From an archaeon (GTDB lineage Archaea; Aenigmatarchaeota; Aenigmatarchaeia; GW2011-AR5), in contig DATDXH010000092.1 of assembly GCA_035289405.1 (NCBI GenBank), positions 1 to 27,857 on the forward strand: a stretch of 27,857 nucleotides of DNA, given 5' to 3'. A program made the translations under genes and the position numbers. Numbering within the stretch: position 1 is the first letter of the stretch; each line of letters opens with the position of its first letter. Positions 1 through 18,656 of this stretch are shown in pieces. The notes under the pieces are model-generated. The model was not told the DNA's origin. It did not search any database and worked only from the letters and a program-made list of their open reading frames with translations.

Positions 1-1
1 A

Positions 2-265: not shown

Positions 266-267
266 AT

Positions 268-359
268 TATAGTTCTCCAAGGAAAATACAATGTCACACC
301 CTTGGAAACTATATGTGAAGCAAATGTGTAATACCGTACTATTTATTTGCTTCATTATA
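268..359. repeat. Two tandem TA-bounded hairpin units
   Basis: 268-313: TATAGTT-c-TCCAAGG / CCTTGGA-AACTATA. 312-359: TATG-TGAAGCAAAT / ATTTGCTTCA-TTATA. The units share the TA at 312-313. Confidence 0.8.
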
Positions 360-375
360 ATTCCATTACTGCACT

Positions 376-390
376 AGAAACACTTTAAAT
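376..390 (+). promoter_or_regulatory. Archaeal BRE/TATA promoter
   Basis: AGAAAC then TTTAAAT (384-390), 29 nt before ATG 413. The same TTTAAATCCTTT string lies at 7316, also 29 nt before an ATG. Confidence 0.65.
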
Positions 391-412
391 CCTTTCTTTC
401 CATCTTCTCCAA

Positions 413-1363
413 ATGCGGGCACTAATAACTGGCATCACGGGGTTCACCGGCAGCCATATGGCCGAGTACCTGCTCAAGAACGGCCACGAAGTCGTTGGAA
501 CCGTACGCGGGCGGAATAGGCAAACAGAATTCATAGACGGCCTCAAGAACAAAATAACACTTCTCGAATGTGACCTTACAGACACGAACTCCGTCTCGCA
601 GACGCTTGACGAGGCTACGCCCGACGTTATATTTCATCTTGCTGCGCAGTCCTTCGTGCCTACAAGCTGGCGGGCTCCGCAGGAAACAATCAACACGAAT
701 GTCATAGGCACACTCAATGTCTTGGAGTCCATGAGGAGGTCAAAAACAGATGCAGTAATCCAGATAGCGGGCAGCAGCGAGGAGTACGGGCTTGTACACG
801 AGAACGAAACGCCAATAAAAGAGACAAACCAGCTGAGGCCGCTAAGTCCGTATGCAGTTTCCAAGGTTGCGCAGGACTTGCTTGGCTACCAGTACCACAA
901 GAGCTACGGAATGAAAGTCGTGCGCACACGCGCATTCAACATAGTTGGGCCTCGCAGCGCAGAGAAAATAGTCACTGCGGCATTCGCCAAACAGATAGCC
1001 GAGATAGAGAGAGGCGCAGAGCCGGTTATACACGTGGGCAATCTTGACGCGTTCAGGGATTTCACGGATGTGCGCGATATAGTACGCGCTTACACACTTG
1101 CGGTCGAGAAGTGTGAGTATGACGAGGTGTACAATATATGCTCAGGGAAGACTTGGAAGATACGGGACGTGCTACAAATGCTGCTTTCTATGTCTACAAA
1201 GAAAATTGAAATACAAGAGGACCAAGCAAGGATGAGACCTAGTGATGTCCAGATACTTCTCGGGGACAATACAAAGTTTCGCAGCAAGACTGGCTGGGCA
1301 CAAAAGATACCATTTGAGCAGACACTGAAAGATGTCATGAATTACTGGAGAAAGAAGGCCTAG
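413..1363 (+). CDS. GDP-sugar SDR enzyme, Rmd-like (GDP-4-keto-6-deoxymannose reductase / Gmd family), paralogue 1
   Basis: GITGFTG Rossmann motif, HLAAQSFV, GSSEEYG, YAVSK catalytic motif, VGNLDAFRDFTDVRD and RPSDV closely resemble characterised Rmd. Confidence 0.85.
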   Translation: MRALITGITGFTGSHMAEYLLKNGHEVVGTVRGRNRQTEFIDGLKNKITLLECDLTDTNSVSQTLDEATPDVIFHLAAQSFVPTSWRAPQETINTNVIGTLNVLESMRRSKTDAVIQIAGSSEEYGLVHENETPIKETNQLRPLSPYAVSKVAQDLLGYQYHKSYGMKVVRTRAFNIVGPRSAEKIVTAAFAKQIAEIERGAEPVIHVGNLDAFRDFTDVRDIVRAYTLAVEKCEYDEVYNICSGKTWKIRDVLQMLLSMSTKKIEIQEDQARMRPSDVQILLGDNTKFRSKTGWAQKIPFEQTLKDVMNYWRKKA

Positions 1364-1608
1364 TAGATTTACACTAAGGTAGTTTTTAGATTTAAAATGT
1401 CTACTATGTTATAGTTAACCAAGTAAAGAATCCGGATATTATAACTTGGTTTACTATGCTCAGAAAGCAAAGCTTTCTGGCATGCCGAAGAACTTTGTTC
1501 TTCGAGCATATGTGACCAACTTGTGTTATACGAGAAAGAACGAAGTTCTTTCTGTACAACAAGAGCTTGCTCTTGTTTGTATACCAAATATTAAGTTGGT
1601 CAACTATA
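1361..1608. repeat. Array of TA-bounded hairpins with two Y-shaped twin-hairpin units
   Basis: Hairpins 1361-1406 (TAGTAGA/TCTACTA) and 1410-1457 (ATAGT-t-AACCAAGT/ACTTGGTT-t-ACTAT); twin hairpin 1457-1508; hairpin 1509-1608 (TGACCAACTT/AAGTTGGTCA) with twin hairpin 1531-1579 in its loop. Confidence 0.85.
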
Positions 1609-1625
1609 ATAGAGGATGTGATTTT

Positions 1626-2588
1626 ATGGACTGGAATGGCGTTAGAGTTCTTGTAACAGGCGCGGACGGGTTTATGGGTTCGCATCTTACAGAGCGGCTT
1701 TTACGTGAAAGGGCAGACGTTTCTGTTTATGTACGCGGAACATCTGACAGTGGCACTGTCCAATACAAGCTGAAAAATATAAACCACATACAAAAGGATC
1801 TTAAATCAATAGTTACTGGCAACATAGGGAATGCCGATTCTATAAAACTAATAGAAAAAAACAATCCACAAATAATTTTTCACCTCGCGGCCGATGCTTA
1901 TGTGCCGAATTCTTTCGAGCACCCTCTTGAGGTTATGGAAACAAATGTCATAGGCACACTAAATGTACTACACGCTTCTATGCACCTGAAAGAACTTCAG
2001 CAGGTTGTTTGTACATCTTCGAGCGAGATATACGGTTCTTCCAGCATACCCATAAACGAGGACCACCCACTCAACCCTACCTCGCCTTATGCCGCATCAA
2101 AGGTGGCTGCAGACAGATATTGCTTTTCTTACTGGAATACCTATAAACTACCCGTTGCGATAATAAGGCCGTTCAACACTTACGGCCCTAGACATACCTA
2201 TGACGTAATACCAAAATTCATCAACCTAGCTCTACAAAACAAGAACCTTACTATATACGGGACTGGAAACCAGACAAGAGATTTTACGTACGTCGACGAC
2301 ATGATAAGCGCATTTATTTTAATGGGATCGGAAAAGAAGGCTATTGGCCAGGCCGTAAATTTTGGCACTTCAAAAGACATAAGCATAAAGGATGTGGCCG
2401 AAAAGATAATAAAAATAAGCAGGTCAGCCGCAAGGACGGTGCATGTGAAAGAAAGACTTGCAGAAGTTACAAGACTTTGCTGCGATTACAATAAGGCTAA
2501 TAAGCTGTTTGGATGGGCCCCTACTATAGGGATAGATGAAGGTCTAAAAAGAAATATAGAATGGGCTTCTGCAAGTACAAAATTCTAG
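1626..2588 (+). CDS. NAD-dependent NDP-sugar 4,6-dehydratase, LegB-like
   Basis: VTGADGFMGSHL, TSSSEIYG, HPLNPTSPYAASKVAAD, RPFNTYGPR and EVTRLCCD match the LegB-like dehydratase group. Start moved to ATG 1626 (GTGAT site upstream); the ORF-track extension runs through the repeat array. Confidence 0.8.
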   Translation: MDWNGVRVLVTGADGFMGSHLTERLLRERADVSVYVRGTSDSGTVQYKLKNINHIQKDLKSIVTGNIGNADSIKLIEKNNPQIIFHLAADAYVPNSFEHPLEVMETNVIGTLNVLHASMHLKELQQVVCTSSSEIYGSSSIPINEDHPLNPTSPYAASKVAADRYCFSYWNTYKLPVAIIRPFNTYGPRHTYDVIPKFINLALQNKNLTIYGTGNQTRDFTYVDDMISAFILMGSEKKAIGQAVNFGTSKDISIKDVAEKIIKISRSAARTVHVKERLAEVTRLCCDYNKANKLFGWAPTIGIDEGLKRNIEWASASTKF

Positions 2589-2607
2589 ACATGAGGCAAT
2601 GATAACG

Positions 2608-3540
2608 ATGCGTATAATTATAATAGGCCCAACACTTTTGACAAGGCATTGTTTGGAGGCAATTATAACAGAAGGCAAAGATGAAATATTGGCTGTTTAC
2701 GTACTCGACGACACATTTGCATGGGTTAAAAGCCGTTTTGCAATTATGGATGATACAGCGCAAAAAAATAACATAAATCTTTACAAGGTATCAAATATAA
2801 ACGACAGGTCTGTAATTGATCAGATTAAAAAATTCCAGCCTGACGTAATTCTCGAGCTTGGCTGGTCCCAGATAATTTCACCTGAGATACTTTTGATACC
2901 TAAAAAGGGCTGTATAGGTGTTCATGCGTCATTGCTGCCTAAGAATAGGGGTGCTGCATCGCTTAATTGGGCACTTATCAAAGGCGAGAAGAAAACGGGC
3001 GTCACACTTTTTTATCTTGCTGAGAGGCCAGATGACGGTGATATAATAGCCCAAAAGGAATTCGCTGCGGACGAACGGGATGACATTGAAACGTTGCACG
3101 CAAAATCAGACCTCGCAAGCGTTGAACTTCTAATGGAAAATATGGGTGCTATAAGAAATGATACTGTTAAAAGAATACCGCAAGACATGAAACAAGTCAC
3201 GTACACACCTAGAAGAAAACCGGAAGACGGGGTAATAAGCTGGACAAGACCCTCCATTGAAATTTACAACTGGGTAAGGGCCCAGTCGCACCCTTTTCCA
3301 GGCTCATTCACATTTTGGAAAAACAAAAAATTATATGTGTGGCGCGTAAAAATTTCTGAATACAAGTCTGTCTCAAGGCCTGGAGAGATTTCCATGATTA
3401 AAAACAAACAGGGCGTACTTGTAAATACGACTGATAACATGATCCTCTTGGAACGTGTTCAATTTGATAATGGAATAGAGATGTGGGCCGATGAACTAGC
3501 AAGAAAATACAACCTTCAAGATGGTGATTTCCTTGGATAA
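2608..3540 (+). CDS. N10-formyl-THF-dependent formyltransferase (Fmt/ArnA N-terminal-like), probably a sugar N-formyltransferase
   Basis: GVHASLLPKNRG, PDDGDII and a C-terminal Fmt-type domain (PEDGVISW...EIYNWVRA...PFPGSFT). Alternative start 2599. Confidence 0.85.
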   Translation: MRIIIIGPTLLTRHCLEAIITEGKDEILAVYVLDDTFAWVKSRFAIMDDTAQKNNINLYKVSNINDRSVIDQIKKFQPDVILELGWSQIISPEILLIPKKGCIGVHASLLPKNRGAASLNWALIKGEKKTGVTLFYLAERPDDGDIIAQKEFAADERDDIETLHAKSDLASVELLMENMGAIRNDTVKRIPQDMKQVTYTPRRKPEDGVISWTRPSIEIYNWVRAQSHPFPGSFTFWKNKKLYVWRVKISEYKSVSRPGEISMIKNKQGVLVNTTDNMILLERVQFDNGIEMWADELARKYNLQDGDFLG

Positions 3541-4669
3541 TAACATAAATAATGCTATGTCATGGCTACTGAATTCCGGAATACAAAATACAAAAGACGA
3601 CAATACTGGCAGTTTTAATGCTTGGTATGACATGTCTACAGGAACCTACCCATTTATTTATTCAGAGATAACTGGGTACGGAATAAGTACACTGGTTTAT
3701 GCAAACTCTATCAACAAGGATGATGCCTACAAGGAACATGCAAAGACTGCGGCCAACTGGATTATAAATTTAATGACTGCGAATGGCAACATTATTGCAA
3801 GAATTTATTCTGGCCACAAACCTGATTTAAAGTATTTTGGTAGTAATGTATCTTACACATTCGATAATGGAATGGTTCTTTCTGGTCTTGTAAGTATTTA
3901 CTTGGCAACAAAAGATGACAAGTACCTACTAGCAGCGATAAAAATTGCAGAATCCATCTTGAAGACGCAAAAAAGTACAGGACTATTCAATGCAGCTTAC
4001 GATGCAGCAACCGGGGAATATATTGATATTCAGGACAAGTGGTCGACACAGTCTGGAAGCTATCACGCAAAGCTTGCCATAGGGCTTCTTGATTTGTACG
4101 AGGCAACACATAATAAAATTTTTAAAGACGCAGCGGTTGGCGTATGCAACGCATCACTTGGGTTGCAGGCTGATGACGGCAGGTTTGTAACACAACAGAA
4201 TGAGAACAGCACACATATGCATCCACACTGCTATTCGGCAGAAGGACTCGTCTACGCGGGAATTGGCCTTGGTGAAAAGCGGTTCCTTGATAGTGCCTTG
4301 CGCGCTGTTAAATGGGCCCTTGATAACCAACTTAGTAATGGTGGCATGCCGTGCAAATATGTCGATGGCAAATTCATTGAACATGAACGCAGCGATACGC
4401 TTGCGCAGGTTCTTAGATTAGGGGTAATCCTGAAGGATATCGGATTGCTCGTTGGTTATGAAAAGCGTCTGGAGCGGCTAGCTTCTAGGCTTGTTCAGTT
4501 CCAAAACACTTCAGTTGATAATAGCGGTGGATTTTTCTACGGAACGGAGCTTGACGGAACAAAAAAACCTCACCTAAATTCGTGGGTGACCATGTTTTCC
4601 ATACAAGCAATGCACATGTACAATAGTTACACAAAAGGCGAAAGAATAGAATTAAAGCCTTTTGTATAG
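3533..4669 (+). CDS. Uncharacterised alpha/alpha-toroid protein (prenyltransferase/squalene-cyclase-repeat-like)
   Basis: Repeated helix + Q-x-x-x-G-x-F motifs (QKSTGLF, QADDGRF, QLSNGGM) and YSEITGY motif. Start TTG 3533 proposed from GGTGAT 5 nt upstream; ATG 3521 and 3557 are alternatives. Confidence 0.6.
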   Translation: MDNNINNAMSWLLNSGIQNTKDDNTGSFNAWYDMSTGTYPFIYSEITGYGISTLVYANSINKDDAYKEHAKTAANWIINLMTANGNIIARIYSGHKPDLKYFGSNVSYTFDNGMVLSGLVSIYLATKDDKYLLAAIKIAESILKTQKSTGLFNAAYDAATGEYIDIQDKWSTQSGSYHAKLAIGLLDLYEATHNKIFKDAAVGVCNASLGLQADDGRFVTQQNENSTHMHPHCYSAEGLVYAGIGLGEKRFLDSALRAVKWALDNQLSNGGMPCKYVDGKFIEHERSDTLAQVLRLGVILKDIGLLVGYEKRLERLASRLVQFQNTSVDNSGGFFYGTELDGTKKPHLNSWVTMFSIQAMHMYNSYTKGERIELKPFV

Positions 4670-4679
4670 CCATAAGTTT

Positions 4680-5927
4680 ATGGATAAAGTTTTTTCTATT
4701 ATAGAAAAAGAAAAACAACGCCAGCTTGATACGTTAGAACTTATCCCTTCGGAGAACTACGTTTCGCAGGCCGTATTAAGGGCTTTAGGGTCTGAAATGA
4801 ATAATAAGTACTCTGAGGGTTACCCTGGCAAGCGCTATTACGGCGGCAACATTTTTGTAGATGAAATAGAGAACATAGCTATAGAACGTGCAAAGAAACT
4901 CTTTGGTACAAACCACGCAAACGTACAGCCCTATTCAGGCAGCCCAGCCAATATGGCGACTTGTTTTGCATTGCTGGAACCAGGTGAAAAATTAATGGGC
5001 ATGAGCCTTTCTTATGGTGGACATCTAACACACGGTCATGCTGTGAACTTTTCAGCCCGATATTACGGCTCTGCGCAGTACCCAACAGGAAAAGACGGGT
5101 GGCTAGACTACGATCTTATAGAAGAAATAGCGAGACGCGAAAGACCAAAACTTATTTTTTGTGGTGCAACAGCCTATTCGCGCGTCTTCGATTTTAGACG
5201 TCTCGGAGAGATAGCGACATCAGTGGATGCATTTCTTGTGGCCGATGTCGCGCACATAGCAGGTCTAATAATCGGGGGCGTTCATCCAACCCCAGTTGGC
5301 ATAGCTGATGTTATTACAACAACTACACACAAGACGCTGCGCGGGCCGAGGGGTGCGATGATATTGTGTAATGGCAACAGTTCTGACCCGCTCAAGGTGC
5401 CGGAAAAGACGCGCAATAACCTACCGTCTCTGATCGATCGTGCAGTATTTCCAGGCTTGCAGGGTGGTCCTCATAACCACACTACGGCCGGTATAGCTGT
5501 TGCTCTTGGCGAGGCATTGGAGCCATCCTTCGCTGAATATGCAAAACAGATAGTCAAAAACGCAAAAGTTTTGGGTGCGACTCTTATAGAGAACGGTCTT
5601 GATGTGGTCACTGGTGGCACTGATAACCACCTATTACTTCTTGACCTAACCAAAATCGGAATCACTGGCAAAGAGGCAGAAACATTACTTGATATTGCTG
5701 GAATAACTGTCAACAAGAATACAGTACCTTTCGATAAAAGAAAACCGTTCGATCCTAGTGGCATAAGACTGGGCACACCTGTCGTGACTACAAGAGGTAT
5801 GAAAGAAAGTCATATGGGGTTAATCGGCGACATGATTGTTGATGTTCTGATCAGGAAAAAGAAACCAGAATATGTTAGGGAGAGTGTGTTCGATCTTTGT
5901 AAAGACTTTCCAGCTTTTGCATGGTGA
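4680..5927 (+). CDS. glyA: Serine hydroxymethyltransferase, bacterial-type
   Basis: PSEN, NKYSEGYPGKRYYGG, NVQPYSGSPAN, GGHLTHG, PLP lysine in TTTTHKTLRGPRG, FPGLQGGP. Confidence 0.96.
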   Translation: MDKVFSIIEKEKQRQLDTLELIPSENYVSQAVLRALGSEMNNKYSEGYPGKRYYGGNIFVDEIENIAIERAKKLFGTNHANVQPYSGSPANMATCFALLEPGEKLMGMSLSYGGHLTHGHAVNFSARYYGSAQYPTGKDGWLDYDLIEEIARRERPKLIFCGATAYSRVFDFRRLGEIATSVDAFLVADVAHIAGLIIGGVHPTPVGIADVITTTTHKTLRGPRGAMILCNGNSSDPLKVPEKTRNNLPSLIDRAVFPGLQGGPHNHTTAGIAVALGEALEPSFAEYAKQIVKNAKVLGATLIENGLDVVTGGTDNHLLLLDLTKIGITGKEAETLLDIAGITVNKNTVPFDKRKPFDPSGIRLGTPVVTTRGMKESHMGLIGDMIVDVLIRKKKPEYVRESVFDLCKDFPAFAW

Positions 5928-5931
5928 TTGT

Positions 5932-6786
5932 ATGGCGGCACAAATACTGGACGGCATGAAAATAGCATCAAGTATAGAGGAAGATGTTAAAAGAGTGCTT
6001 AGTAATTCCGATGTCAAGCCTTCAATAGTATTTTTTGTTGTGGGCGACAACCAAGCAACCAAAGTTTACGTAAGGAAAAAACAGGAGGCATGTGAAAGGG
6101 TTGGAATTTTATCTAATGTTGTCTCATTTAATGGGGACGTTTCGGAGAATGAGTTGATAGAAAAAATACAAGAGGTAAACTCCTCCAACACAACCGGTAT
6201 AATAGTCCAGCTGCCGCTGCCAAAGCATATAAATGAGAACTTAGTCGTCTCATCTATTTCTACGGAAAAAGACGTGGATTGCATGCACCCAGAAAATATA
6301 GGCAAACTTCTCTACTCTTCGGAGCTTGTACCTTGCACTGTGTCAGGGATAATGAGACTTATAGAAGAAACAGGTACAAATGTCGCTGGCAAGAATGTGA
6401 CTGTGATAAACAGGCGACATATAGGTAAGTGCCTTTCCATACTACTGTTAAACATGAAAGCCACCGTGTCGGTGTGCGGACGTAACAGCCAACTAGAACT
6501 TTATACAAAACACGCTGACATAGTAATTAGTGCTGCCGGATCTCCGGGGTTGATAAAAAGAGACATGATAAAACCGGGAGCGGTTGTAATTGATGTTGGA
6601 ATAAGCATGTACGAAGGAAAAATAAGGGGTGATGTAGACGACAACGTCAGAGATATCGCCTCGTTTGTCACGCCTGTGCCGGGCGGCGTAGGTCCCATGA
6701 CAGTTGCAATGTTAATGAAGAATACGTCTGACATGGCTGTGAGAAACTCAATTAGCCATGATTTATACAAGAAACACAACATTTAA
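5932..6786 (+). CDS. folD: Methylenetetrahydrofolate dehydrogenase/cyclohydrolase
   Basis: YVRKK, VQLPLP, KDVD, PCT, VIDVG and TPVPGGVGPMTVAML; GGTGAT site before ATG 5932. Confidence 0.93.
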   Translation: MAAQILDGMKIASSIEEDVKRVLSNSDVKPSIVFFVVGDNQATKVYVRKKQEACERVGILSNVVSFNGDVSENELIEKIQEVNSSNTTGIIVQLPLPKHINENLVVSSISTEKDVDCMHPENIGKLLYSSELVPCTVSGIMRLIEETGTNVAGKNVTVINRRHIGKCLSILLLNMKATVSVCGRNSQLELYTKHADIVISAAGSPGLIKRDMIKPGAVVIDVGISMYEGKIRGDVDDNVRDIASFVTPVPGGVGPMTVAMLMKNTSDMAVRNSISHDLYKKHNI

Positions 6787-6811
6787 TTTTTGTTGTTACA
6801 CGGTGTAATTA

Positions 6812-7252
6812 ATGGAAACTAATTTGATATTATTGATCGCCCTTGGTATTGCATTTAATGTTTCTATAAGGCTAATCTTGCGAGGTTCAAGACATTTTAT
6901 AGGAGTAGATGCTATGCCGGCATTTCCAATTGCCGCTGGTTACCTCTACGGATTTACCGGCGGATTATGGGCGGGTATAGTGATTTCTGTAAGCTATTAT
7001 TTCATGGGTGGCAAGAACATTTCATACGCACCTCTTATAGTTTTAATTAACGCGCTCGTTGGAGCATTTTCTACATTATTTGCTGGCTGGACGTTCGTAA
7101 CGGCAGGATTTTTACTACTTTTTGTTTATCATGCGATTTCGCTGTTCGTAGTCTCTACGTTAAGCGAACCAGGGCCTGGATATTTCACTTTTATGGTGTT
7201 AAATCTCGTATCTTCCGGTTTGATAATTTATTTTGCCTCACAATTTATATGA
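6812..7252 (+). CDS. Small polytopic membrane protein, possibly ECF S-component-like
   Basis: 146 aa, almost entirely hydrophobic, about 5 helices; IAAGYLYGFTGGLWAGIV resembles the helix-2/3 G-P-x-x-G-x-x-x-G pattern of S-components. Confidence 0.5.
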   Translation: METNLILLIALGIAFNVSIRLILRGSRHFIGVDAMPAFPIAAGYLYGFTGGLWAGIVISVSYYFMGGKNISYAPLIVLINALVGAFSTLFAGWTFVTAGFLLLFVYHAISLFVVSTLSEPGPGYFTFMVLNLVSSGLIIYFASQFI

Positions 7253-7315
7253 GTAGTCAGAATTTTAGCGTAGTATATTTCTAGGCTTGTACCAAAATGT
7301 GGTATATTTATGGCG

Positions 7316-7322
7316 TTTAAAT
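7316..7322 (+). promoter_or_regulatory. TATA box
   Basis: TTTAAAT 29 nt upstream of ATG 7345, same context as the 384 box. Confidence 0.6.
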
Positions 7323-7344
7323 CCTTTTTTCAGGTTTGTTATCT

Positions 7345-8457
7345 ATGAAAATCGCCATCATAGTCGGAACAAGACCAGAAATAATAAAATTCAGTCCAAT
7401 AATACGTATATGCGAACGTGATAAAATAGATTATTTTGTAATACATACCGGGCAGCACTACTCGTATGAAATGGACAGCATATTCTTCAAGCAGTTGAAG
7501 TTGCCGCAGCCCAAATACAATCTTGGCATAAAATCTTCGGCGCCTCATCTACAGGGAGAACATACAGGCAAGATGCTGATAGAAATAGAAAAAATACTGC
7601 TGAAGGAAATGCCTTCTATAGTTCTTGTTCTTGGCGATACAAATACTGTTCTCGCGGGCGCACTAACGACGAAGAAAATAACTACTACCAAGTCTTTCAC
7701 AGGATTCGATATCAAACTTGGCCATATCGAAGCTTGTATAAGGAGCCACTGGGACGAGATGCCTGAAGAGGTGAACAGGAAAATAGCAGACCATTTATCG
7801 GATTTTCTTTACGCACCTACAGCCAAGTCAGTCGATAATGCCCATAGGGAGAATATAGACATGAGTAAAATAATTATAACAGGGAACACAATAGTTGATG
7901 CGGTTCATCAGATATCGGAAATAGCGAAAGATGTGAAAATATTGGATGACATGAAACTCGACGGGCAGAAGTATCTTGTTGCAACGATGCATCGCCAAGA
8001 GAATGTCAATTCCGAAAAAAGATTCGTAGGCATATTGAAAGGCCTCGAAAAAATATATAAGAAATATCGTATGCCAATTGTTTATCCTATACATCCCCGT
8101 ACACGAAAAATTATAGATAAGATGGGCATTGTGATGCCTGAAGGCGTGATAGAAACAGAGCCTCTGGGGGTTTTAGAATTTTTCCAGCTGCAGAAAAACG
8201 CATGTTTGGTGCTGACAGATTCTGGAGGAGTTCAGGAGGAAACATGCATATTGGGTGTCCCGTGCGTTACCCTCAGGGATAATACAGAAAGACCAGAAAC
8301 GCTTGATGTTGGAAGCAATATACTGGCAGGCGCCGACCCAGATGTAATACTCTCCTGCGTTGACGAGATGCTGACGAGGCCACGAGAATGGAAAAACCCG
8401 TTTGGCGATGGCAATGCAGCCGAAAAAATTATTCAACATATTCTTAAGAATGTCTAG
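7345..8457 (+). CDS. wecB: UDP-N-acetylglucosamine 2-epimerase (non-hydrolysing)
   Basis: GTRPEIIK, HTGQHY, GDTNT, MPEEVNR, TGNTIVDA, DSGGVQEE, RDNTERPE. Confidence 0.92.
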   Translation: MKIAIIVGTRPEIIKFSPIIRICERDKIDYFVIHTGQHYSYEMDSIFFKQLKLPQPKYNLGIKSSAPHLQGEHTGKMLIEIEKILLKEMPSIVLVLGDTNTVLAGALTTKKITTTKSFTGFDIKLGHIEACIRSHWDEMPEEVNRKIADHLSDFLYAPTAKSVDNAHRENIDMSKIIITGNTIVDAVHQISEIAKDVKILDDMKLDGQKYLVATMHRQENVNSEKRFVGILKGLEKIYKKYRMPIVYPIHPRTRKIIDKMGIVMPEGVIETEPLGVLEFFQLQKNACLVLTDSGGVQEETCILGVPCVTLRDNTERPETLDVGSNILAGADPDVILSCVDEMLTRPREWKNPFGDGNAAEKIIQHILKNV

Positions 8458-8479
8458 GTCAATATGTATTTGTGATTTT

Positions 8480-9199
8480 ATGAAAGATTTTATGTCTGTC
8501 GTAATACCTGCCTATAACGAGGAGCAGAATATAAAAAGGATACAGGATGAACTCATGCCAGTTATGAAAAGTATGCCACTGACTTACGAGATTATAGTAG
8601 TCGACGATGGTTCTACCGACAATACTTATAATGAGGCCCTGAAAATTTCAAAGACAAATAAAAAAGTCCGGATAGTAAGACACAAGAGGAACATGGGCCT
8701 TGCAGCGGCCACACGTACTGGCATAAAAAGTTCTCGAGGCAATATTTCAGTTTTTCTGGATTCTGATTTTACCTTTCATCCCAGCGAGATGCCTAAACTT
8801 TATAAAAAATATAAAGAAACTGGTTGCGATTGCGTTGTCGGCTCCCATTTTGGCCCGAGTGGCGATCCTGATCTATTGTTCCACAGGCTTGTATTGAGCA
8901 AAGGCGTTAACAAGCTTTACAGCACATTTCTTGGCAAAAAGATATCCACAATAAGCTCCATTTTTCGTCTTTACAAAACAGCCGAAATAAAGAAACTCAA
9001 GCTAAACAGCAAGGGATTTGACATATGCGCTGAAATCCTTGTCAGGATGATACAAAATAAATGCCACATAGAGGAGGTTCCGGTAAGGCTGACTACTAGG
9101 ATATATGGCGAGTCAAAGCTTAACAACAGGAAAGAATTTGTAAATCATATTAAGATGCTCTCTAAGGTGGCGTCGTGGAAGATAAAGGGAAAACAATGA
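8480..9199 (+). CDS. GT2 polyprenol/dolichol-phosphate sugar synthase-like glycosyltransferase
   Basis: SVVIPAYNEE, VDDGSTD, DSD motif, GESKL. GTGAT upstream of ATG 8480; ATGA overlap with the next gene. Confidence 0.88.
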   Translation: MKDFMSVVIPAYNEEQNIKRIQDELMPVMKSMPLTYEIIVVDDGSTDNTYNEALKISKTNKKVRIVRHKRNMGLAAATRTGIKSSRGNISVFLDSDFTFHPSEMPKLYKKYKETGCDCVVGSHFGPSGDPDLLFHRLVLSKGVNKLYSTFLGKKISTISSIFRLYKTAEIKKLKLNSKGFDICAEILVRMIQNKCHIEEVPVRLTTRIYGESKLNNRKEFVNHIKMLSKVASWKIKGKQ

Positions 9200-10740
9200 A
9201 ATCCCCAAAAATAGCTAATTGGCACATACTAATCTTGATACTTATTTTTGCATTAATTTTAAGACTCCCTGGCATAAGCGCAAATTTTACCGGCGATGAG
9301 ATAGATACAGTTGGTCCTGCAAGGAACTTTGTTGTTGCTGGAGATTTCAGAGCGTTTGATACGGCACATGGACCATCTTATAATTTCACACACCCTCCTG
9401 TAAGGACGCTTCTGTATTCTTACTGGGCACTCATGTTCGGGTTTTCAGATATAGCCTTGAGATTGGTTTCAATAGTGTTTGATATATTTTTTATTGTTGT
9501 AGTTTTTTTAATTGCTAAAAGTGTCTATTCTGAAAAAGTCAGCATCATTGCTGCCGGACTAGCTGCCGTTTCAAGATATTCTATATGGTTTGCTGACACA
9601 GCCAGCGTTGATACTGGGCATTTTTTGTTCACGACGTCAGCAGCGGTCTTGTTCTTCCTTATTTATGTAAAAAATGACGACAAAAGATATCTTGGAACAT
9701 CTTTTATTTTCCTTCTCGTAAGCATGCTGACAAAATTTAGTACAATCATAATTTTTATACCTATTATCGTTGGGGCATATTTTTACAAAAAAAGTACAGT
9801 TGGTGCAGTTTTAATTGTATCGGCTCTCTTATGTACAATATTTTTCATGTTTGTGATTTCTTCTATATTTAACAACGGTCAGATGTTTGAAGAGCCTCTC
9901 AAGGTATTTTTAGAGTACTCAAGTAGCAGCTCCCCAAGTATTGGCGAATACCTGTTTAATAAAGTATTCAAGGTTGCGACAATATCGTGGCAGATGACAC
10001 CATTCTTCGCCATAATGGTCTTTGCGGCCATTTATACACTTAAAAAAACGAAGGATTTCTTCATCATGGCATGTTGGCTAATTTTAGGGTTTTTTATTGT
10101 ATTTGTGCCGTATGGTCAAGATTCACAGAGATATTTTGGTGTAGCACTGACCCCTGCTTACATACTTGTAGCCAAATACATTGAGTCATTTGATTTCAGG
10201 AACAAGGTCATGTTACTATCGGTATTAGCTACTGTCGCTATCTCTTTATTTATTGGGCTCAATGACTTGATGGGATATTATGCTCCAGCTTACCTTGGAA
10301 TATTCTACATAGCGGCAGTTTTGCCTATAATGCACAGGAAATATATGAAACCTGTCCTTATGGGAGGATTCTTGGGGCTTAGCCTGTTTTTTGCACTTAC
10401 ACACGCCAGTAATTTGTACATAGTGTCAGACTCGGTTGATGCGTTGTCAAAAAATGTAATTGATAACAATTACATGTACAAGGAAGTATGGGCGAGCAAA
10501 GACATAGCCTACTATATAACCCCAAAAAATGAAACGGTCTACCTAAATTTAATACCAGATATAAACTTCTTCACTATGGAAAATCTAAGAGAGAACAATG
10601 TCATGTATATAGCATTTTATTCAACTCCAGACGAGAATAAAATTATCGAAGCGGCAGAATTTTGTTTGGATGCATACACTTACAGTTCTTACGGACATAC
10701 AATAGGCTTCGTATGCCGTGTAGATCAAGGCAAGCTTTAG
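9196..10740 (+). CDS. GT-C (ArnT/PMT-like) membrane glycosyltransferase
   Basis: Many TM segments; first loop GDEIDT...HPP, then LRLVS and KFS motifs typical of GT-C. Confidence 0.8.
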   Translation: MKSPKIANWHILILILIFALILRLPGISANFTGDEIDTVGPARNFVVAGDFRAFDTAHGPSYNFTHPPVRTLLYSYWALMFGFSDIALRLVSIVFDIFFIVVVFLIAKSVYSEKVSIIAAGLAAVSRYSIWFADTASVDTGHFLFTTSAAVLFFLIYVKNDDKRYLGTSFIFLLVSMLTKFSTIIIFIPIIVGAYFYKKSTVGAVLIVSALLCTIFFMFVISSIFNNGQMFEEPLKVFLEYSSSSSPSIGEYLFNKVFKVATISWQMTPFFAIMVFAAIYTLKKTKDFFIMACWLILGFFIVFVPYGQDSQRYFGVALTPAYILVAKYIESFDFRNKVMLLSVLATVAISLFIGLNDLMGYYAPAYLGIFYIAAVLPIMHRKYMKPVLMGGFLGLSLFFALTHASNLYIVSDSVDALSKNVIDNNYMYKEVWASKDIAYYITPKNETVYLNLIPDINFFTMENLRENNVMYIAFYSTPDENKIIEAAEFCLDAYTYSSYGHTIGFVCRVDQGKL

Positions 10741-10742
10741 AC

Positions 10743-12239
10743 TCACTCAGTTTGCGCCATTTCGAATGTAGTTCCGGATTCCCACCCGAAGCTTCTTTTA
10801 ACCATCATGTCAAGGAATTTTATACTGGCAGTTTTCTCGAATTTATGCTTTTCCCAGTTCTTCTTGTAGTTTGCAGACAACGCGCGTATGAAGAACTTGG
10901 GGACTCTTGTGTTTCTAAGAACCTGGCAAAGCCGTTTTCCGTCGACAAATTTAGACGTGTACATTATTGTCTCTAGCATCTCTTTCTTGTCCTGTATCCA
11001 TGGCGTATAGGTCTGCTGCCTGCTGAAGGCCACCCATTCCTCCAGTGTTTTTGGCACTACAAATCCCTGCTGCACGGCGTAGTCGAACAGAGGCGCACCG
11101 AGGTACGGCACAAAGATGTAGAACTGTGTTATATGAGCGTTCCGGTTTTCTTTGACCAGTTGCAACGCAAGGTCAACGGTTTCCATGAGCTCCTCGTACG
11201 ATTCGCCTGGAAAGCCCATCATGAAATTGTAAAATGCCTTGATATTTGTTTGTGCGAGTTTTTTATTGGCCGCGATCATCGTCGCTTTGTTTTCAGCCTT
11301 GTTAATGAGTTTCAGTATACGGTCGCTGCCCGACTCAACGCCTGGCTCTACAACGCGCAGGCCCCCTTCCTCGAGTTTTTTCATGTCCGTAATTAACATG
11401 TTGTCCATACGTGCCTGCATGGACCAGCTGAATTCACCGTTAATCATTTCAGCTATTCTTTCAGCACGTCTTGGATTCGACGTGAAGTTCTCGTCGTAAA
11501 ATTTCACGACGTTGAGCTTGTACTTCTTTACCATCTTGCTTACACGTTCGTAGGCAAGCTCGGCTGTCATGCTCCTCCAATTCCCCTTGCTTATTCCTGC
11601 CGTGCTACAGAATGTGCATGTGTAAGGGCAGCCGCGGCTCGAGATAAAGGGCAGTGTTCGTTCCTTGGCGTCAAATGAAATTCCGCCGCTTTTCACATAA
11701 TTCTCAACGTCGACAAGATCGTACGGTATTTCCGGTATCTTGTTCGGATCTGGCGATTCCGCTCGCGGGTTCATTTTAATGGCGCCATTCTCTTTGTAGG
11801 CTATACCATTTACACTATCAAGTTTGGTTTTGCCGTCAAGCGCAGCCATTATGTTCTGCAGAACAAACTCGCCTTCGCCCACTACGATCATGTCGATTAG
11901 ATTATGGCCTATGGTCTGTTCTGGCATAAGGGTCGCATGCACGCCTCCCCATAGGACAACCGATTTTGAATTGTTCTTTACAGAGCGTGATATATCCAGT
12001 GCATATTTGAGTTGTGTCCCTGTCATCGATGGTATCAAAACAACGCGCGGCCCTTTTGACAGTTCATTAGAAAAATTGGATTCGAAGTTGTCGTCTACCC
12101 TCTGGTCTAGTATCTTTACGTTATAATCGGCGTGCAAAGTGGACACCGTAGACAGGAGGCCTAGCGGAAGCTCGACTGACGAATTCTTTATATCGTATCC
12201 CGTCTTCGGGTACACTCCTAAGATGTCTGCCATTTTCAT
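10743..12239 (-). CDS. B12-binding domain radical SAM enzyme 1
   Basis: N-terminal PLGL...GGVHAT...GEGE cobalamin-binding domain; SRGCPYTCTFC; GVESG; MMGFPGE. Start 12239 or 12233. Confidence 0.9.
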   Translation of the reverse strand: MKMADILGVYPKTGYDIKNSSVELPLGLLSTVSTLHADYNVKILDQRVDDNFESNFSNELSKGPRVVLIPSMTGTQLKYALDISRSVKNNSKSVVLWGGVHATLMPEQTIGHNLIDMIVVGEGEFVLQNIMAALDGKTKLDSVNGIAYKENGAIKMNPRAESPDPNKIPEIPYDLVDVENYVKSGGISFDAKERTLPFISSRGCPYTCTFCSTAGISKGNWRSMTAELAYERVSKMVKKYKLNVVKFYDENFTSNPRRAERIAEMINGEFSWSMQARMDNMLITDMKKLEEGGLRVVEPGVESGSDRILKLINKAENKATMIAANKKLAQTNIKAFYNFMMGFPGESYEELMETVDLALQLVKENRNAHITQFYIFVPYLGAPLFDYAVQQGFVVPKTLEEWVAFSRQQTYTPWIQDKKEMLETIMYTSKFVDGKRLCQVLRNTRVPKFFIRALSANYKKNWEKHKFEKTASIKFLDMMVKRSFGWESGTTFEMAQTE

Positions 12240-12250
12240 TATTACAATAG

Positions 12251-12270
12251 GCGAACTTTTAAGGTTTCTG
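12251..12270. promoter_or_regulatory. Bidirectional BRE/TATA promoter
   Basis: GCGAAC-TTTTAAGG on + toward ATG 12294; AGAAAC-CTTAAAAG on - toward ATG 12239/12233. Only about 55 bp separate the divergent starts. Confidence 0.55.
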
Positions 12271-12293
12271 TATAGTAGAAAGAATGACATCAT

Positions 12294-13772
12294 ATGGGAG
12301 TTGGCAAGAGGTTCTTTGGGCGTAATTACGGGCTTATTCTACTTGCCATTATTTTGGTAACAGCTTTTTTTCTCCGGTTTAACGACCTTTCATGGGAGAC
12401 ATATGGGTATGGAGAAGTTGAAATAAAGCAGGCCGCAGACGAATACGTAAAAGGAAATTTCGTGAATAATTTTTATATCTTTGATACGCCTCCGCTTAGC
12501 AAATATATGTTTGCATTGTCGATTGCAATTTTCGGGGCCTCGGAATCCGCATTGAGAATAGTGCCGCTTATTTTTGGCATGCTAACGATTGTGGCGATAT
12601 TCCTTGCAACAAGAAAAATGTACAATGAAAAGACGGCTTTGCTCGCCTCCGCAATAACGGCCTTTTCCATACTCCAAATAGAGTTCAGCCGATACGCGCA
12701 GCTAGAGACCATGTTAAGCTTTTTTTACGTTCTTACAGTATATTTCCTCTGGGGAGCTGTCAACAACAGGAAATATGCGTACGTCTTTTTCGGGCTATCA
12801 CTTGGCCTGTCAATTGCAATAAAATTCACGTCAGTTATAATCCTCGTCGGAGCGCTTGTTTACATATTATATACAAAACAAGTAAAATTCTCCATAAAAC
12901 CCAGCTTTTCAATTAGCATTAAAAACTGGATATTGAAGTCACTTGTCATAGCGCTAGCCGTTTTTATAGTATCATGGCCTTTCGGGTTTTCACAGCTTTA
13001 CATGTCTGCCGATATAAGTGTGAATTATGGCGGGCAAATAAGGGAACAGCATATAGAAGCCGACGCCCCAATAATGCTACTGTCTTTTGCCAGACGTATC
13101 TTTTCTAGCGTGGAGTCTGATGTTGTTTACCCTCTAGCAATGAAAATACCGATATTGAATTACTTTCTTCTTTATGCGGTAAGGGAGAGCCTACTATTTT
13201 TGGCGCTGCTTGTTGCTGGCATTTATTTCGCGGCCAGGAAGCCGCTGCAACAGGACAGACTGATAATAATATTTATTGTAACGTTCCTTGTACTGCTTTC
13301 GTTCCAGAGGACTCTCATATCATACCGCCATATAGTTCCTATGGTGCCTCTTCTTGCCATTATTTCATCCAGGTGGCTGACAAAATTAAGCAACAGTAAG
13401 CAGTTCGTGTCGATATCTGTAATAGGTTTAATACTTCTGCTGTACGCAGCCCTTTCCGGCACGTCTTATTCACTTTCATACAACCCGCTTAAGAATGTTC
13501 TTGGCGTCCCAGACTCGGAGTTCAGGTTTTCGGAAGGCATGCGAGAGACTATAGACTATGCCAAAGAAAATTGCGAGAGCGTTTTCACGAGCGACTATTA
13601 CAAGTTCATAATGGAGCCTTATTACGACAAATTCTCGCCTTCTGCGGAATGCGCTGTAAAGGGAATTAGCGGCACCGCCATGGTCGATGAATATGTTGTG
13701 TCGCATAGTTGCGTAATATCAAAAACAATAACCAAGAATTCTATAAGTCTTATCGAGATTTATTCGTGCTGA
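12294..13772 (+). CDS. GT-C (ArnT/PMT-like) membrane glycosyltransferase 2
   Basis: LRF...PPLSKY...LRIVP...SRYAQLE...KFT pattern with many TM helices. The usual DE and HPP residues read GE and TPP. Confidence 0.78.
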   Translation: MGVGKRFFGRNYGLILLAIILVTAFFLRFNDLSWETYGYGEVEIKQAADEYVKGNFVNNFYIFDTPPLSKYMFALSIAIFGASESALRIVPLIFGMLTIVAIFLATRKMYNEKTALLASAITAFSILQIEFSRYAQLETMLSFFYVLTVYFLWGAVNNRKYAYVFFGLSLGLSIAIKFTSVIILVGALVYILYTKQVKFSIKPSFSISIKNWILKSLVIALAVFIVSWPFGFSQLYMSADISVNYGGQIREQHIEADAPIMLLSFARRIFSSVESDVVYPLAMKIPILNYFLLYAVRESLLFLALLVAGIYFAARKPLQQDRLIIIFIVTFLVLLSFQRTLISYRHIVPMVPLLAIISSRWLTKLSNSKQFVSISVIGLILLLYAALSGTSYSLSYNPLKNVLGVPDSEFRFSEGMRETIDYAKENCESVFTSDYYKFIMEPYYDKFSPSAECAVKGISGTAMVDEYVVSHSCVISKTITKNSISLIEIYSC

Positions 13773-13774
13773 AG

Positions 13775-15130
13775 CTACTGGCTAAGTACCATACCCTTGA
13801 CTACTTTCAAGCCCGTCATGTTTTTCTTAAGCTCCGAGAAAGACCGGATCTTTGAGACCCTTCTTAAGATATACTTCGGGCGCATGTAAAATCTCCTGAA
13901 CGCTTCCCTATGAATTTCAAGCAACTCCTCGCGGTTCTTGTATCCGTGCGGCACGAAGACCGGCGACCATCCATGGTAATCCTTGAAATTCTTGTCCAAT
14001 GTGCCCCACTTTTCATAGTTGTCCCACAGCTGGGTGCCGGGATAGGGCGTTGTAATTGAAAATTGTGCGTAATCAGGATCCATTTCTATTGCAAGCTGGA
14101 TTGTCTTACGTGCAAGTTCGGGCGTTTCGCCGGGTAGCCCGACCATGAAGGAGCCCCTTATTTCTATCCCGGACTTTTTCACGAGCTTGACCGCTGCTTT
14201 CATCTGTTCCACTGTCATCTTCTTTGTTATGTTGTCCAGCAGCTCTTGCGCACCCGACTCTATACCGAAGAATATGTTCCAACATCCGGCCTTTTTCATC
14301 GCATGGAGCAACGGCTCGTCTATAAGATCCAGACGTGTATAACATGACCAAATTATACCTTCTTTTTCCATCTCCTTGCAGAACTCATGGGTCCATTTCT
14401 TGTTTATTGTCAGTATGTCGTCCCAGAAGGCAATTTCCTTTATCTTGTAAGTTTCTTTGAGTTGCCTTATCTCGGTCATCACGTTTGCAACACTCCTCTG
14501 CCTGAAAAGACCCATCGCGTCAAAGCAGAACGTGCATGTAAACGGGCAGCCCCTGCTGGTCACCATTTGGAACGTGCCAGGATCTTTTTTGTAAGTATTG
14601 GGAAGTGAGGAGTATTTTGACATATCAAGCAGGTGCCGCGCGGGCAGCGGCAAAGAATCGAGGTCCTTGACCTTGCCTGCGTTGACCACCCTAAGCTGCT
14701 TGTACTTGTCAAGATTGTTTACAATGTCAATTATTATATTGTCGGCCTCTTCCTGCACTATTATGTCAGCCCTTGTCGTTTGCGCAAGCTCTTTCGCCAT
14801 TATAGTCGCGTGCGGCCCGCCCAACAGCACTACGACATTCGGAAACTGGTTTTTAATCAGGTCACAAAGCTCCTTTGTAACGTCGGCAAGGGACGTTAAA
14901 GCGGCTATACCGACCAGCTCAGGCTGAAAATTCATTATTTCTGTTGTGATATCGCCTGCGCCATGGTTATTGACGGGACAGTCCATTATATGAACTTCAT
15001 GCCCCTCCCTCTCAAGGACGGCTGCCATGTAGCATAGGCCAAGCGGCGGCAGGAAACCCCCAATACCTTCCACGTTGTGGGCGTACCTTTCAGTAAGCGT
15101 TTGCGGCGGAAAAATTAGTAATACTCTCAT
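13775..15130 (-). CDS. B12-binding domain radical SAM enzyme 2
   Basis: PPLGLCYMAAVL, GGPHAT, SRGCPFTCTFC, GIESG, MVGLPGET, PYPGT. Confidence 0.92.
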   Translation of the reverse strand: MRVLLIFPPQTLTERYAHNVEGIGGFLPPLGLCYMAAVLEREGHEVHIMDCPVNNHGAGDITTEIMNFQPELVGIAALTSLADVTKELCDLIKNQFPNVVVLLGGPHATIMAKELAQTTRADIIVQEEADNIIIDIVNNLDKYKQLRVVNAGKVKDLDSLPLPARHLLDMSKYSSLPNTYKKDPGTFQMVTSRGCPFTCTFCFDAMGLFRQRSVANVMTEIRQLKETYKIKEIAFWDDILTINKKWTHEFCKEMEKEGIIWSCYTRLDLIDEPLLHAMKKAGCWNIFFGIESGAQELLDNITKKMTVEQMKAAVKLVKKSGIEIRGSFMVGLPGETPELARKTIQLAIEMDPDYAQFSITTPYPGTQLWDNYEKWGTLDKNFKDYHGWSPVFVPHGYKNREELLEIHREAFRRFYMRPKYILRRVSKIRSFSELKKNMTGLKVVKGMVLSQ

Positions 15131-15153
15131 GATTCATAGTAAGGTGTATACCT

Positions 15154-15894
15154 TTAAGAAATTGTCCCGGCACGATGCGGCGAGTATTTTTTGAGCCTTA
15201 ATTTTACGTAAAGCCTTGAAAGGTTATTCAACATATCCACTATATTGTCCACGATAAATACGTTGCTCTCTTTCCGTTCATACCAGTCTATAGGAATCTC
15301 ACATATCTTGTATCCCATTTTTTCCGCGTAGATGAGAAATTCGGTATCCCAGAACCAGCCTTTATTGCCTATATACGGAATTAGCTTTTTGGCCAGGGAT
15401 TTTCGGAAAGCTTTGTAGCCGCATTTCGTGTCACGCATACTTGTCCGAAAAAGCAACCTCAGCAATACAGAAAAACTTTTGCCTGCAAACGACCTGGCGA
15501 ACGACCTCCTGACTGTCGCGGCAGGGCTGTATCTGGACGTAATAACTATGTCGTATTTTTTCATTTTTTCAAGGACTTCTTCTGTTATATCGAGGCTTGT
15601 CGAGAGGTCGATGTCCATGAAAATTATTTTTTCGCCTTTTGACGCATGTATTGCCTTCTCAATGGCTCCGCCCTTTCCGAGCCTCTTATTGCTGTGTATA
15701 TGCCTTATTTCCTTGTATTTTTTGGCGAGCTGCTGGCATATCTCTGGAGTCCTGTCATTGCTCTCCTCTACTATGACTATCTCGTAGTTTTCACCATATT
15801 TTTTCCTTATAGAATCCATTTTCTTTTTTATCAACAGCGCATTTTTCCTTGCTAGCAGCTGTTCATTATACGCTGGGATTATTATTGACAGCAT
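15154..15894 (-). CDS. GT2 dolichyl-phosphate sugar synthase-like glycosyltransferase
   Basis: SIIIPAYNEQ, GKGGAI, FMDID, DTKCGYKAF, WFWDTE, EIPIDW. Start ATG 15894, TATA 31 nt upstream. Confidence 0.88.
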   Translation of the reverse strand: MLSIIIPAYNEQLLARKNALLIKKKMDSIRKKYGENYEIVIVEESNDRTPEICQQLAKKYKEIRHIHSNKRLGKGGAIEKAIHASKGEKIIFMDIDLSTSLDITEEVLEKMKKYDIVITSRYSPAATVRRSFARSFAGKSFSVLLRLLFRTSMRDTKCGYKAFRKSLAKKLIPYIGNKGWFWDTEFLIYAEKMGYKICEIPIDWYERKESNVFIVDNIVDMLNNLSRLYVKLRLKKYSPHRAGTIS

Positions 15895-15917
15895 CGAGAA
15901 ACCACACTTTTTCAAGG

Positions 15918-15925
15918 TTTATATA
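15918..15925 (-). promoter_or_regulatory. TATA box
   Basis: TATATAAA on the minus strand, 31 nt upstream of ATG 15894. Confidence 0.6.
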
Positions 15926-15945
15926 CATTTACCAAATAACGCTTT

Positions 15946-16091
15946 TATAGCTGTACAAGGGGACGGTAATGTTATTAGTTCCTTGTGAGCTATACATGGC
16001 TAAGCCGTGCTTAGCCTGTACAGGAAAACCGTTGGTTTTCCGTGTATGCGAACCCATAAAATATGTTGGGTTCTTTTATGGGTTAGCTATA
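15946..16091. repeat. Hairpin + Y-shaped twin hairpin + hairpin array between divergent genes
   Basis: 15946-15994 TATAGCT..ACAAGG / CCTTGT..AGCTATA; 15995-16044 GGCTAAGC-cgt-GCTTAGCC TGTACA GGAAAACC-gtt-GGTTTTCC; 16051-16084 AACCCATAAAA / TTTTATGGGTT ending AGCTATA. Confidence 0.85.
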
Positions 16092-16092
16092 A

Positions 16093-17969: not shown

Positions 17970-17977
17970 CAACTCGG

Positions 17978-18355: not shown

Positions 18356-18373
18356 TTAGTCACCAGATGTTTA

Positions 18374-18432: not shown

Positions 18433-18435
18433 CGC

Positions 18436-18483: not shown

Positions 18484-18536
18484 TCATTTATTAAGCGTAA
18501 CATTTATGAACCTTCGTTTCTACGAACAATCGGATT

Positions 18537-18632
18537 TATAGTTAACCCAGTAAAGATCCTTAATATGATTTACTGGGTTCACATATAACTCACAAGGAAG
18601 TAATATTCTTTTTGTTTCCTTGTAGAGTTATA
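18537..18632. repeat. Two tandem TA-bounded hairpin units
   Basis: 18537-18587 AACCCAGTAAA / TTTACTGGGTT; 18584-18632 TATAACTC-ACAAGGAA / TTCCTTGT-a-GAGTTATA. Homologous to the reverse complement of 15946-16091 without the Y unit. Confidence 0.85.
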
Positions 18633-18656
18633 AGCTTTATCACGAGATATAACTCC

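Follow-up and report, generated by a model that had tools for sequence, protein, structure and literature searches.

A 50-bp twin-hairpin sequence in the intergenic DNA of Aenigmatarchaeota is probably a TA-duplicating miniature mobile element

The DNA analyzed here, hereafter called the window, is the whole of contig C92 (27,857 bp; GenBank DATDXH010000092.1), which belongs to a 725-kb draft genome (G000, 111 contigs) of a small groundwater archaeon of the Aenigmatarchaeota (DPANN). When three long intergenic regions of the window were folded, we found that they consist almost wholly of hairpin modules that abut one another and have TA or TATA at their borders. A first-pass annotation, made from the sequence alone, had singled out three Y-shaped units, each flanked by TA and built of two hairpins around a palindromic hexamer, and all three were found in the sequence, as follows (forward-strand numbering).

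1455..1510, twin-hairpin unit 1, GCATGC type: core at 1457-1508, with TA at 1455-56 and 1509-10
1529..1581, twin-hairpin unit 2, TGTACA type: core at 1531-1579, with TA at 1529-30 and 1580-81
15993..16046, twin-hairpin unit 3, TGTACA type: core at 15995-16044, with TA at 15993-94 and 16045-46

Each unit has two perfect 8- to 9-bp hairpins with loops of 2 to 3 nt and either GCATGC or TGTACA in the middle. Unit 1 reads TGCTC-AGAAAGC-AAA-GCTTTCT-GGCATGCC-GAAGAAC-TTT-GTTCTTC-GAGCA, and units 2 and 3 have the form CA-N-(8- to 9-bp stem, 2- to 3-nt loop)-TGTACA-(stem, loop)-N-TG. The core of the family is 50 bp long, CA-(8- to 9-bp hairpin, 3-nt loop)-TGTACA or GCATGC-(hairpin)-TG, with TA on both sides, and consists of two abutted self-complementary halves of ~25 bp each, CA-(N)-GGNNAANC-loop-GNTTNNCC-TG. 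Terminal inverted repeats are present as CA-N-GGNNAANC and its complement at the other end, perfect over 5 to 6 bp and degenerate over ~25 bp. Near-identical copies of unit 1 that share its left flank lie at C21:11036 and C25:2877, C103:4557 has a copy in reverse complement, and unit 2 has paralogues at C21:11109 and C15:4007. One hairpin of unit 2 has a 2-nt loop (GCTTGC) where the paralogues have 3 nt (GCTTTGC); at window position 1566, about half of the summed depth of the metagenome contigs at unit 2 carries an extra T, and this depth probably comes from paralogous copies.

The three units fold with energies of z = -5 to -7.6. The closing stem of the proposed Y can pair, but the optimum predicted with DNA parameters is a pair of extended tandem hairpins and not a three-way junction, so that the Y would be only one among a number of folds of nearly equal energy; two pairing registers are open to the outer CA/TG and the central TG-TA-CA. 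For an analysis of pairing, we collected 48 distinct units with the anchor TACA-N20-TGTACA-N20-TGTA only, pairing not being required. The extra outer base pair is Watson-Crick in only 37 of these 48 units, compared with 98% for the hairpin stems. The first-pass view that structure rather than sequence is conserved holds for the N positions of the stems, which covary, but the stems also share a template, GG-N-N-A-A-N-C, and covariation is confined to its N positions. We also observed other twin-hairpin families with the same geometry and a nonpalindromic center (C106:4322-4373, C39:161, C46:4444, C56:8285, C1:1600, and C32:1158, and C1:57082 of the genome of archaeon GW2011_AR5, hereafter AR5), for example CTCG-(hairpin)-GCGACTC-(hairpin)-CGAG, with GCGCAC and AAGGCTT as other centers. 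Thus, the twin-hairpin architecture is wider than the TGTACA/GCATGC family.

The units are embedded in repeats of another kind, single-hairpin MITEs (miniature inverted-repeat transposable elements), which are listed below with a second, unoccupied array. As the first-pass annotation had described, and as folding and repeat comparison bear out, units 1 and 3 each lie where two single-hairpin repeats abut, and unit 2 lies inside the loop of one.

1410..1456, single-hairpin MITE, L type, host of unit 1 on its right side (fold and match to an IS630 terminal repeat)
1509..1608, single-hairpin MITE (TATGTGACCAACTTGTGT...AAGTTGGTCAACTATA), loop split by unit 2 (intact copy at C25:2933-2980)
15946..15994, single-hairpin MITE, R type, hosting unit 3 on the left (aligns to 18584-18633)
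16045..16091, single-hairpin MITE, L type, hosting unit 3 on the right, its end one base short of the start codon at 16093
18537..18587, L-type hairpin of the empty array (fold, alignment to the filled array, and comparison with the IS630 terminal repeat)
18584..18585, unoccupied TA, the counterpart of the site where unit 3 is inserted (filled/empty alignment)
18584..18633, R-type hairpin of the empty array (fold and alignment to the filled array)

The sequence at about 18575-18597 had been proposed as the empty site of the 15946-16091 array, and the alignment agrees with this proposal. The reverse complement of 15940-16096 aligns to 18536-18642 with a single 52-bp gap and 78% identity over 99 flanking positions, and unit 3 is the 52-bp gap between the filled (15946-16091) and empty (18537-18633) arrays, with GGGTTCACA-TA-TAACTC at the empty site and GGGTTCGCA-TA-(50 bp)-TA-TAGCTC at the filled one. 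To find further empty sites, we joined the two flanks of each unit and searched the product against the genome, which yielded 94 spanning matches. Among paralogous sequences, we found more than 15 filled/empty pairs in which one clean gap of ~52 bp, made up of the 50-bp core and a TA, separates the two members, the empty site holding one TA where the filled site has TA-(50 bp)-TA. The hosts with empty counterparts include several different single-hairpin pairs, hairpin loops, and one unrelated repeat. For example, empty versions of the unit 1 host occur at C11:15193-15261 and on C54, C39, and C88, unit 2 gives a filled/empty alignment with C25:2905-2979, and the unrelated repeat at C45:2602 reads GACGGGG-TA-(CATGG...CCTTG)-TA-TTAAACC where C73 and C29 have GACGGGG-TA-TTAAACC. 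When the TGTACA-type units of G000 were collected without imposed flanks, all 21 had TA to the left and to the right, their flanks fell into 15 distinct contexts, and the position immediately outside the TA was usually A (37 of 42 flank reads at -3, the right flank read as its reverse complement), most hosts being palindromic junctions. These pairs and flanks show that the unit enters a TA dinucleotide whole, with apparent duplication of that TA, and most insertions are at TA-rich boundaries or in the loops of other small hairpin MITEs. The length of the duplication, which the first-pass annotation had left open, is settled as TA by these pairs, although the GCATGC-type copies are less clean.

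We considered whether each unit could be two independent 24-bp hairpin insertions sharing a TA (center TG-TA-CA) and rejected this idea, as the gaps always span the whole 52 bp, the outer ends are one base longer than the inner ones, and the GCATGC type has no central TA. The unit could also be a passenger that is not mobile itself, either carried in larger composites (hairpin + unit + hairpin, ~150 bp) or spread by recombination between arrays that share TA-bounded modules. In G000, most recent copies are indeed whole 150-bp composites of 94 to 99% identity, the outer hairpins with their IS630-type ends could mobilize such a composite, and about three-quarters of the units lie inside other repeats. 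However, one and the same unit separates the members of different hairpin pairs, interrupts loops, and interrupts an unrelated repeat, always with exact TA-bounded edges and an empty counterpart, and one near-identical unit occurs ~14 times in genome G014 in at least six host contexts, so that we consider the passenger explanation very unlikely. We also examined 51- to 59-bp "skips" at the units in metagenome contigs (four DNA runs, window positions 1-19000) as candidate alleles of this locus and rejected them; the skips have sides of only 20 to 31 nt and ~7-fold depth, which identifies them as other copies of the host repeats.

A strict scan for further copies (two hairpins with perfect stems of 7 bp or more and loops of 2 to 6 nt, closed by a stem of 4 bp or more) found 35 units in the 725-kb genome, compared with 0 in each of 10 dinucleotide-preserving shuffles, and ~32 of the 35 belong to one family. 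A relaxed scan of the genome found 46 units. The contigs are nonredundant, having only repeats of 150 to 220 bp in common, and ~280 repeat intervals are scattered over the intergenic DNA of the genome. Copies are also present in relatives. The exact unit pattern occurs in 47 stretches of a 185,579-species genome collection; most of these records are named Aenigmatarchaeota, and the remainder are archaeal metagenome-assembled genomes named "archaeon" or "uncultured archaeon," including AR5. Allowing up to two mismatches, we found the pattern in 18 of 41 relatives (reversed-pattern control, 0 of 41), and with up to one mismatch it is present in 12 of 24 genomes of the same taxonomic family and in 0 of 226 others sampled from the phylum (control, 0 of 251). 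In the genomes scanned, the family was seen in Aenigmatarchaeota only, and the TGTACA type is confined to one taxonomic family. The exact pattern was not found in a viral contig collection.

The first-pass annotation had suggested that related genomes be compared for empty sites. In AR5 (G010), which is of the same genus and has 16 strict units of its own, all 15 syntenic intergenic regions that carry a unit in G000 lack one, most of them being much shorter in AR5. In three other species (G007, G002, and G005), the orthologue of the gene at 1626 is preceded by a short upstream stretch that holds no array. Copies of the repeats are 94 to 96% identical between species whose neighboring genes are 67 to 76% identical. 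These comparisons show that the unit has moved since the species of the genus diverged. In the window, we also observed that the arrays end in CTATAA at, or 20 to 30 nt before, the start codons at 16093, 1626, and ~18657 (16087-16095, 1603-1628, and 18628-18659), and that the orthologues of these genes in relatives use a different, short upstream region; these array ends may serve as TATA boxes in an archaeon, or the elements may target TATA-like DNA.

The pairing of the stems indicates at which level the hairpins are constrained. In the 48 units, stem pairing is 97.8% Watson-Crick, compared with 71% when partners are shuffled, and 12 of the 16 stem positions show two to four types of Watson-Crick pair. 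G-T occurs in 7 of 768 pairs (0.9%) and is no commoner than other mismatches. The architecture of the unit is equal on both strands, and the loops, which follow a C-G closing pair that never varies and are for the most part GAA/TTC or AAA/TTT, are found both ways round where the stems are otherwise the same, which we take to reflect inversion by hairpin-mediated template switching. The strict pairing, strand symmetry, and loop flips point to DNA-level behavior and not to an RNA gene; a constraint that acts on DNA, alike on both strands, fits these data, and a strand-specific RNA does not. At gathering thresholds no Rfam family matches anywhere in the window, and none covers the units; wobble-tolerant covariation and conserved location, as expected of a structured RNA family, are also missing. 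The units could still be structured RNAs, or protein-binding regulatory sites for the adjacent glycosylation genes, that are conserved for such a role. The window arrays lie directly upstream of the start codons at 1626, 16093, and ~18657, the units fold strongly, and five of the eight stem positions are sequence conserved and could be protein contacts. In addition to the lack of an Rfam match, of G-U tolerance, and of strand bias, this explanation is opposed by the absence of units at orthologous sites in relatives, by their dispersal beside unrelated genes, and by their presence in convergent as well as divergent and tandem intergenic gaps (by crude gene calls). We consider it the least probable of the explanations weighed here, although single loci may have co-opted their units secondarily.

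The units are small, noncoding, multicopy, and dispersed, they have terminal inverted repeats, and they show TA duplication with filled and empty sites, all of which are general features of MITEs. We regard it as very likely that they are a TA-duplicating mobile mini-element, and we are nearly as confident that they are copies of a nonautonomous mobile DNA element, a 50-bp MITE.

The first-pass annotation had also called for a search for a cognate transposase, and we found in the genome a candidate enzyme of a TA-duplicating kind. C24:2046-3173 is an intact IS630-family insertion sequence with TA flanks and a 347-aa transposase (DDE_3, E = 7e-34; NF033545, 225 bits versus a cutoff of 100). Its 33-bp terminal repeat, TATAGTTAACCCATGAAAGAATCTGGACATGTT, matches the 5' arm and loop of the L-type hairpin at 31 of 33 positions. 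In the window, the end TATAGTTAACCAAGTAAAGAATCCGGA of the hairpin at 1410..1456 matches this repeat at 24 of 27 positions, counting from the terminal TATAG, and 16071-16092 matches at 20 of 22. Judged by their sequence, the single-hairpin hosts are ordinary IS630-derived MITEs that come from the terminal repeats of the C24 element (TATAG...CTATA), an origin that would explain their conserved "loop" sequence TCYGGAYAT. A 69%-identical copy of the C24 element with the same ends is present in another genus. For the units, we propose that a transposase making a 2-bp staggered cut at TA would move them in trans, and the best candidate would be an IS630/Tc1-mariner-type enzyme such as that of C24, whose derivatives the host hairpins would be. 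In this scheme, the perfect palindromy of the halves would either be kept by hairpin or cruciform formation (template switching) or be needed for recognition. The unit arms (CAAGAAAGAAC and CATGGAGAATC) resemble the inner part of the C24 repeat (CATGAAAGAATC), a resemblance seen by eye that lends the proposal little support. The units share a TA target and its duplication with the IS630/Tc1-mariner superfamily, and ends that match an autonomous element are found in the L-type hosts but not in the units. From these comparisons, we hold movement of the units by an IS630-family transposase to be possible, at somewhat less than an even chance.

Several observations weigh against this proposal or against mobility of the unit. 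The unit termini (TA followed by CA-N-GG...) are unlike those of either IS630 element examined (TA followed by TAGCTAGCC or TAGATAACTGC): the ends TATAGCTAGCC... and TATAGTTAACCC... of C24 and TATAGATAACTGC... of the second element do not match the CAAGG... or CATGG... that follows TA in the units, which also lack the outer 8 bp of the IS630 repeats. We found no gene-carrying element between twin-hairpin-type ends, and a scan for a single unit half beside a sequence that is not a half yielded nothing but twin hairpins of variant or chimeric form. The unit-bearing genomes G010, G013, G014, G022, and G002 gave no IS630 gene, and in G014, G022, G010, and G013, which have 2 to 15 units each, we detected no gene of the IS630, mariner, Harbinger, or TnpB kind; the searches for mariner (PF01359), TnpB (PF07282), and Harbinger-type (PF13359) genes returned nothing in five unit-bearing genomes, but the mariner search matched no control genome either and thus carries no information. 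AR5 has 10 true IS630-type MITE ends and no transposase gene, so that the absence of an IS630 gene carries little weight. A transposase that reads terminal repeats leaves the perfect palindromy of each half unexplained, and duplex DNA of 50 bp is too short to form a loop. As for the insertions themselves, the gap at GCATGC-type copies measures 50 or 54 bp, a clean TA duplication is not seen there, and these copies probably descend from few events; the unit 3 insertion (15993-16046) is identical and filled in the six other assemblies of the source population that include the gene at 16093, so that presence/absence polymorphism at unit 3 was not seen in this population. Other candidate partners were tried and rejected. 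A 153-aa protein with a transposase-type helix-turn-helix that the IS630 model matched is a universal single-copy gene (39 of 41 genomes), IS4/IS5-type genes (PF01609) in G010, G014, and G000 have no recognizable inverted ends and no link to the units, and an IS6-type element, present as two 85%-identical copies (C30:740-1555 and C80:1-916) encoding a 271-aa protein with a DDE_Tnp_IS240 domain and an N-terminal zinc ribbon, is unrelated to them.

The main rival to an IS630/Tc1-mariner-type enzyme acting in trans is an enzyme that reads structure. One form of this alternative is that a hairpin-reading enzyme, either a Y1 HUH transposase (IS200/IS605 or RAYT type) or a structure-specific enzyme not described so far, moves the unit as single-stranded DNA; the left- and right-end recognition hairpins would then be the two hairpins of the unit, and the apparent duplication would be the target TA plus a TA belonging to the element. 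An IS200/IS605 derivative reduced to its minimum would be expected to have a twin hairpin, strict base-pair covariation is compatible with an enzyme that recognizes shape, and, TA being self-complementary, a 50-bp core plus duplication is not distinguishable from a 52-nt element inserted 3' of TA. Y1_Tnp matches above the Pfam cutoff are commoner in genomes with units (9 of 18) than in those without (2 of 23), but this association comes largely from one genus and is not independent, and there is no Y1_Tnp match in the well-assembled, unit-bearing genomes G010, G013, G014, and G022; the failure to find an IS630 gene in several unit-bearing genomes would also fit. G000 has four Y1_Tnp genes (on C83, C85, C65, and C87), one of them a 227-aa RAYT-like gene; however, none is flanked by units, as a RAYT gene is by its repeats, and the RAYT-like gene on C87 has no flanking repeats. 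The resident IS200-type copies have their own G+C-rich end hairpins, which are unlike the units and do not mark the units as their derivatives. Moreover, IS200/IS605 ends are strand specific, while the unit is strand symmetric and the flank outside the TA is symmetric as well (the A at -3, in hosts that are mostly palindromic junctions). On this evidence, we judge single-strand movement improbable. We would give slightly more credit, while still thinking it unlikely, to the broader conjecture that an enzyme not yet recognized as a transposase moves the twin-hairpin units and similar DPANN mini-elements by reading extruded hairpins or cruciforms and not terminal sequence.

Among known systems, the units can be compared first with the TA-duplicating MITEs of the IS630/Tc1-mariner superfamily, such as Correia/CREE in Neisseria, RUP in Streptococcus pneumoniae, and the 79-bp SM1 in Sulfolobus. 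Like these, the unit is gene-less, dispersed, mostly intergenic, and TA duplicating, with inverted ends, nested insertions, and an IS630 element in the same genome. In contrast to them, it is only 50 bp long, each half is a perfect palindrome, which gives two hairpins and not one long one, and its ends mismatch the resident IS630 element. PATEs are palindrome-associated elements derived from IS200/IS605 that have two subterminal hairpins with little between them, as the unit does; unlike them, the unit is strand symmetric and its ends differ from the IS200-type ends in this genome. The inverted terminal repeats of parvoviruses (adeno-associated virus) are T-shaped, with a short closing stem, two ~9-bp arms, 3-nt loops, and flipped orientations. 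The likeness to the unit is one of architecture only, in the closing stem, two arms, 3-nt loops, and flipped loop orientations; the viral repeats are the ends of linear animal-virus genomes, no relationship is implied, and here the three-way fold is not the predicted optimum. REP (repetitive extragenic palindromic), BIME, and REPIN elements with their RAYT (Y1 HUH) transposases (PMC2817692) are likewise short paired palindromic units with structure-based conservation and high intergenic copy numbers. The units differ from them in having an apparently clean TA duplication and no conserved REP-type 5' tetranucleotide, and the Y1 genes here are not unit flanked, several unit-bearing genomes having no Y1 match at all. 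We found no published description of these elements in a literature search, and a survey of MITEs touches DPANN only in passing (PMC11602168).

Other repeats were noted during this analysis. At window positions 18378-18483, between a gene for a pterin-binding-domain protein and the empty hairpin array, there is a different nested palindromic repeat, AGAATGCATTGA...TCAATGCATTCT enclosing CCCACGACTTTAGTCGTG, with ~5 copies in the genome, including C103:4213-4400 and C106:1462-1586. The repeat CTGG(A/T)AGCTAC-TTTTCTTTT-loop-AAAAGAAAA-GGAGTT occurs in at least nine intergenic gaps (C9:1596, C13:4378, C14:2441, C19:1449, C32:2392, C38:1175, C56:4411, C64:12228, and C69:1829); some of these gaps are convergent by crude gene calls, and this repeat may be terminator-like. 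An exact tandem repeat of ~48 bp (...AAGCTTAAGCAAAAGAAATGAGGTCGTTTTATGAAATCGGAA...) is present at contig ends (C98:1905-2065, C107:2855-3022, and C14:2351), and since it has no spacers, it is not CRISPR-like. The 16S rRNA gene (C9:1794-4905) is matched by the archaeal model as two pieces of far greater length than the model itself, a sign of large insertions or introns.

Read as a twin-palindrome, TA-duplicating MITE, the unit is unusually small and oddly built. A 50-bp double palindrome is near the lower size limit for a unit of transposition, and it raises the mechanistic question of how ends 50 bp apart meet and why each half must base-pair. If a hairpin- or cruciform-reading enzyme does move the units, they would represent a new class of ultrasmall "foldback" transposon, one that proliferates in genomes such as G014 with no detectable IS630, IS200/IS605, mariner, or TnpB gene. 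For annotation, hairpin arrays of this kind should not be taken for RNA genes, terminators, or operators. Copies that are more alike between species than the genes are may be markers of DNA exchange among uncultured groundwater archaea. DPANN genomes are tiny and gene dense, yet insertion of the unit into other hairpin MITEs has produced the nested arrays upstream of the genes in the window, and the long intergenic gaps here are filled with nested mini-transposons that reshape the regions just upstream of genes.

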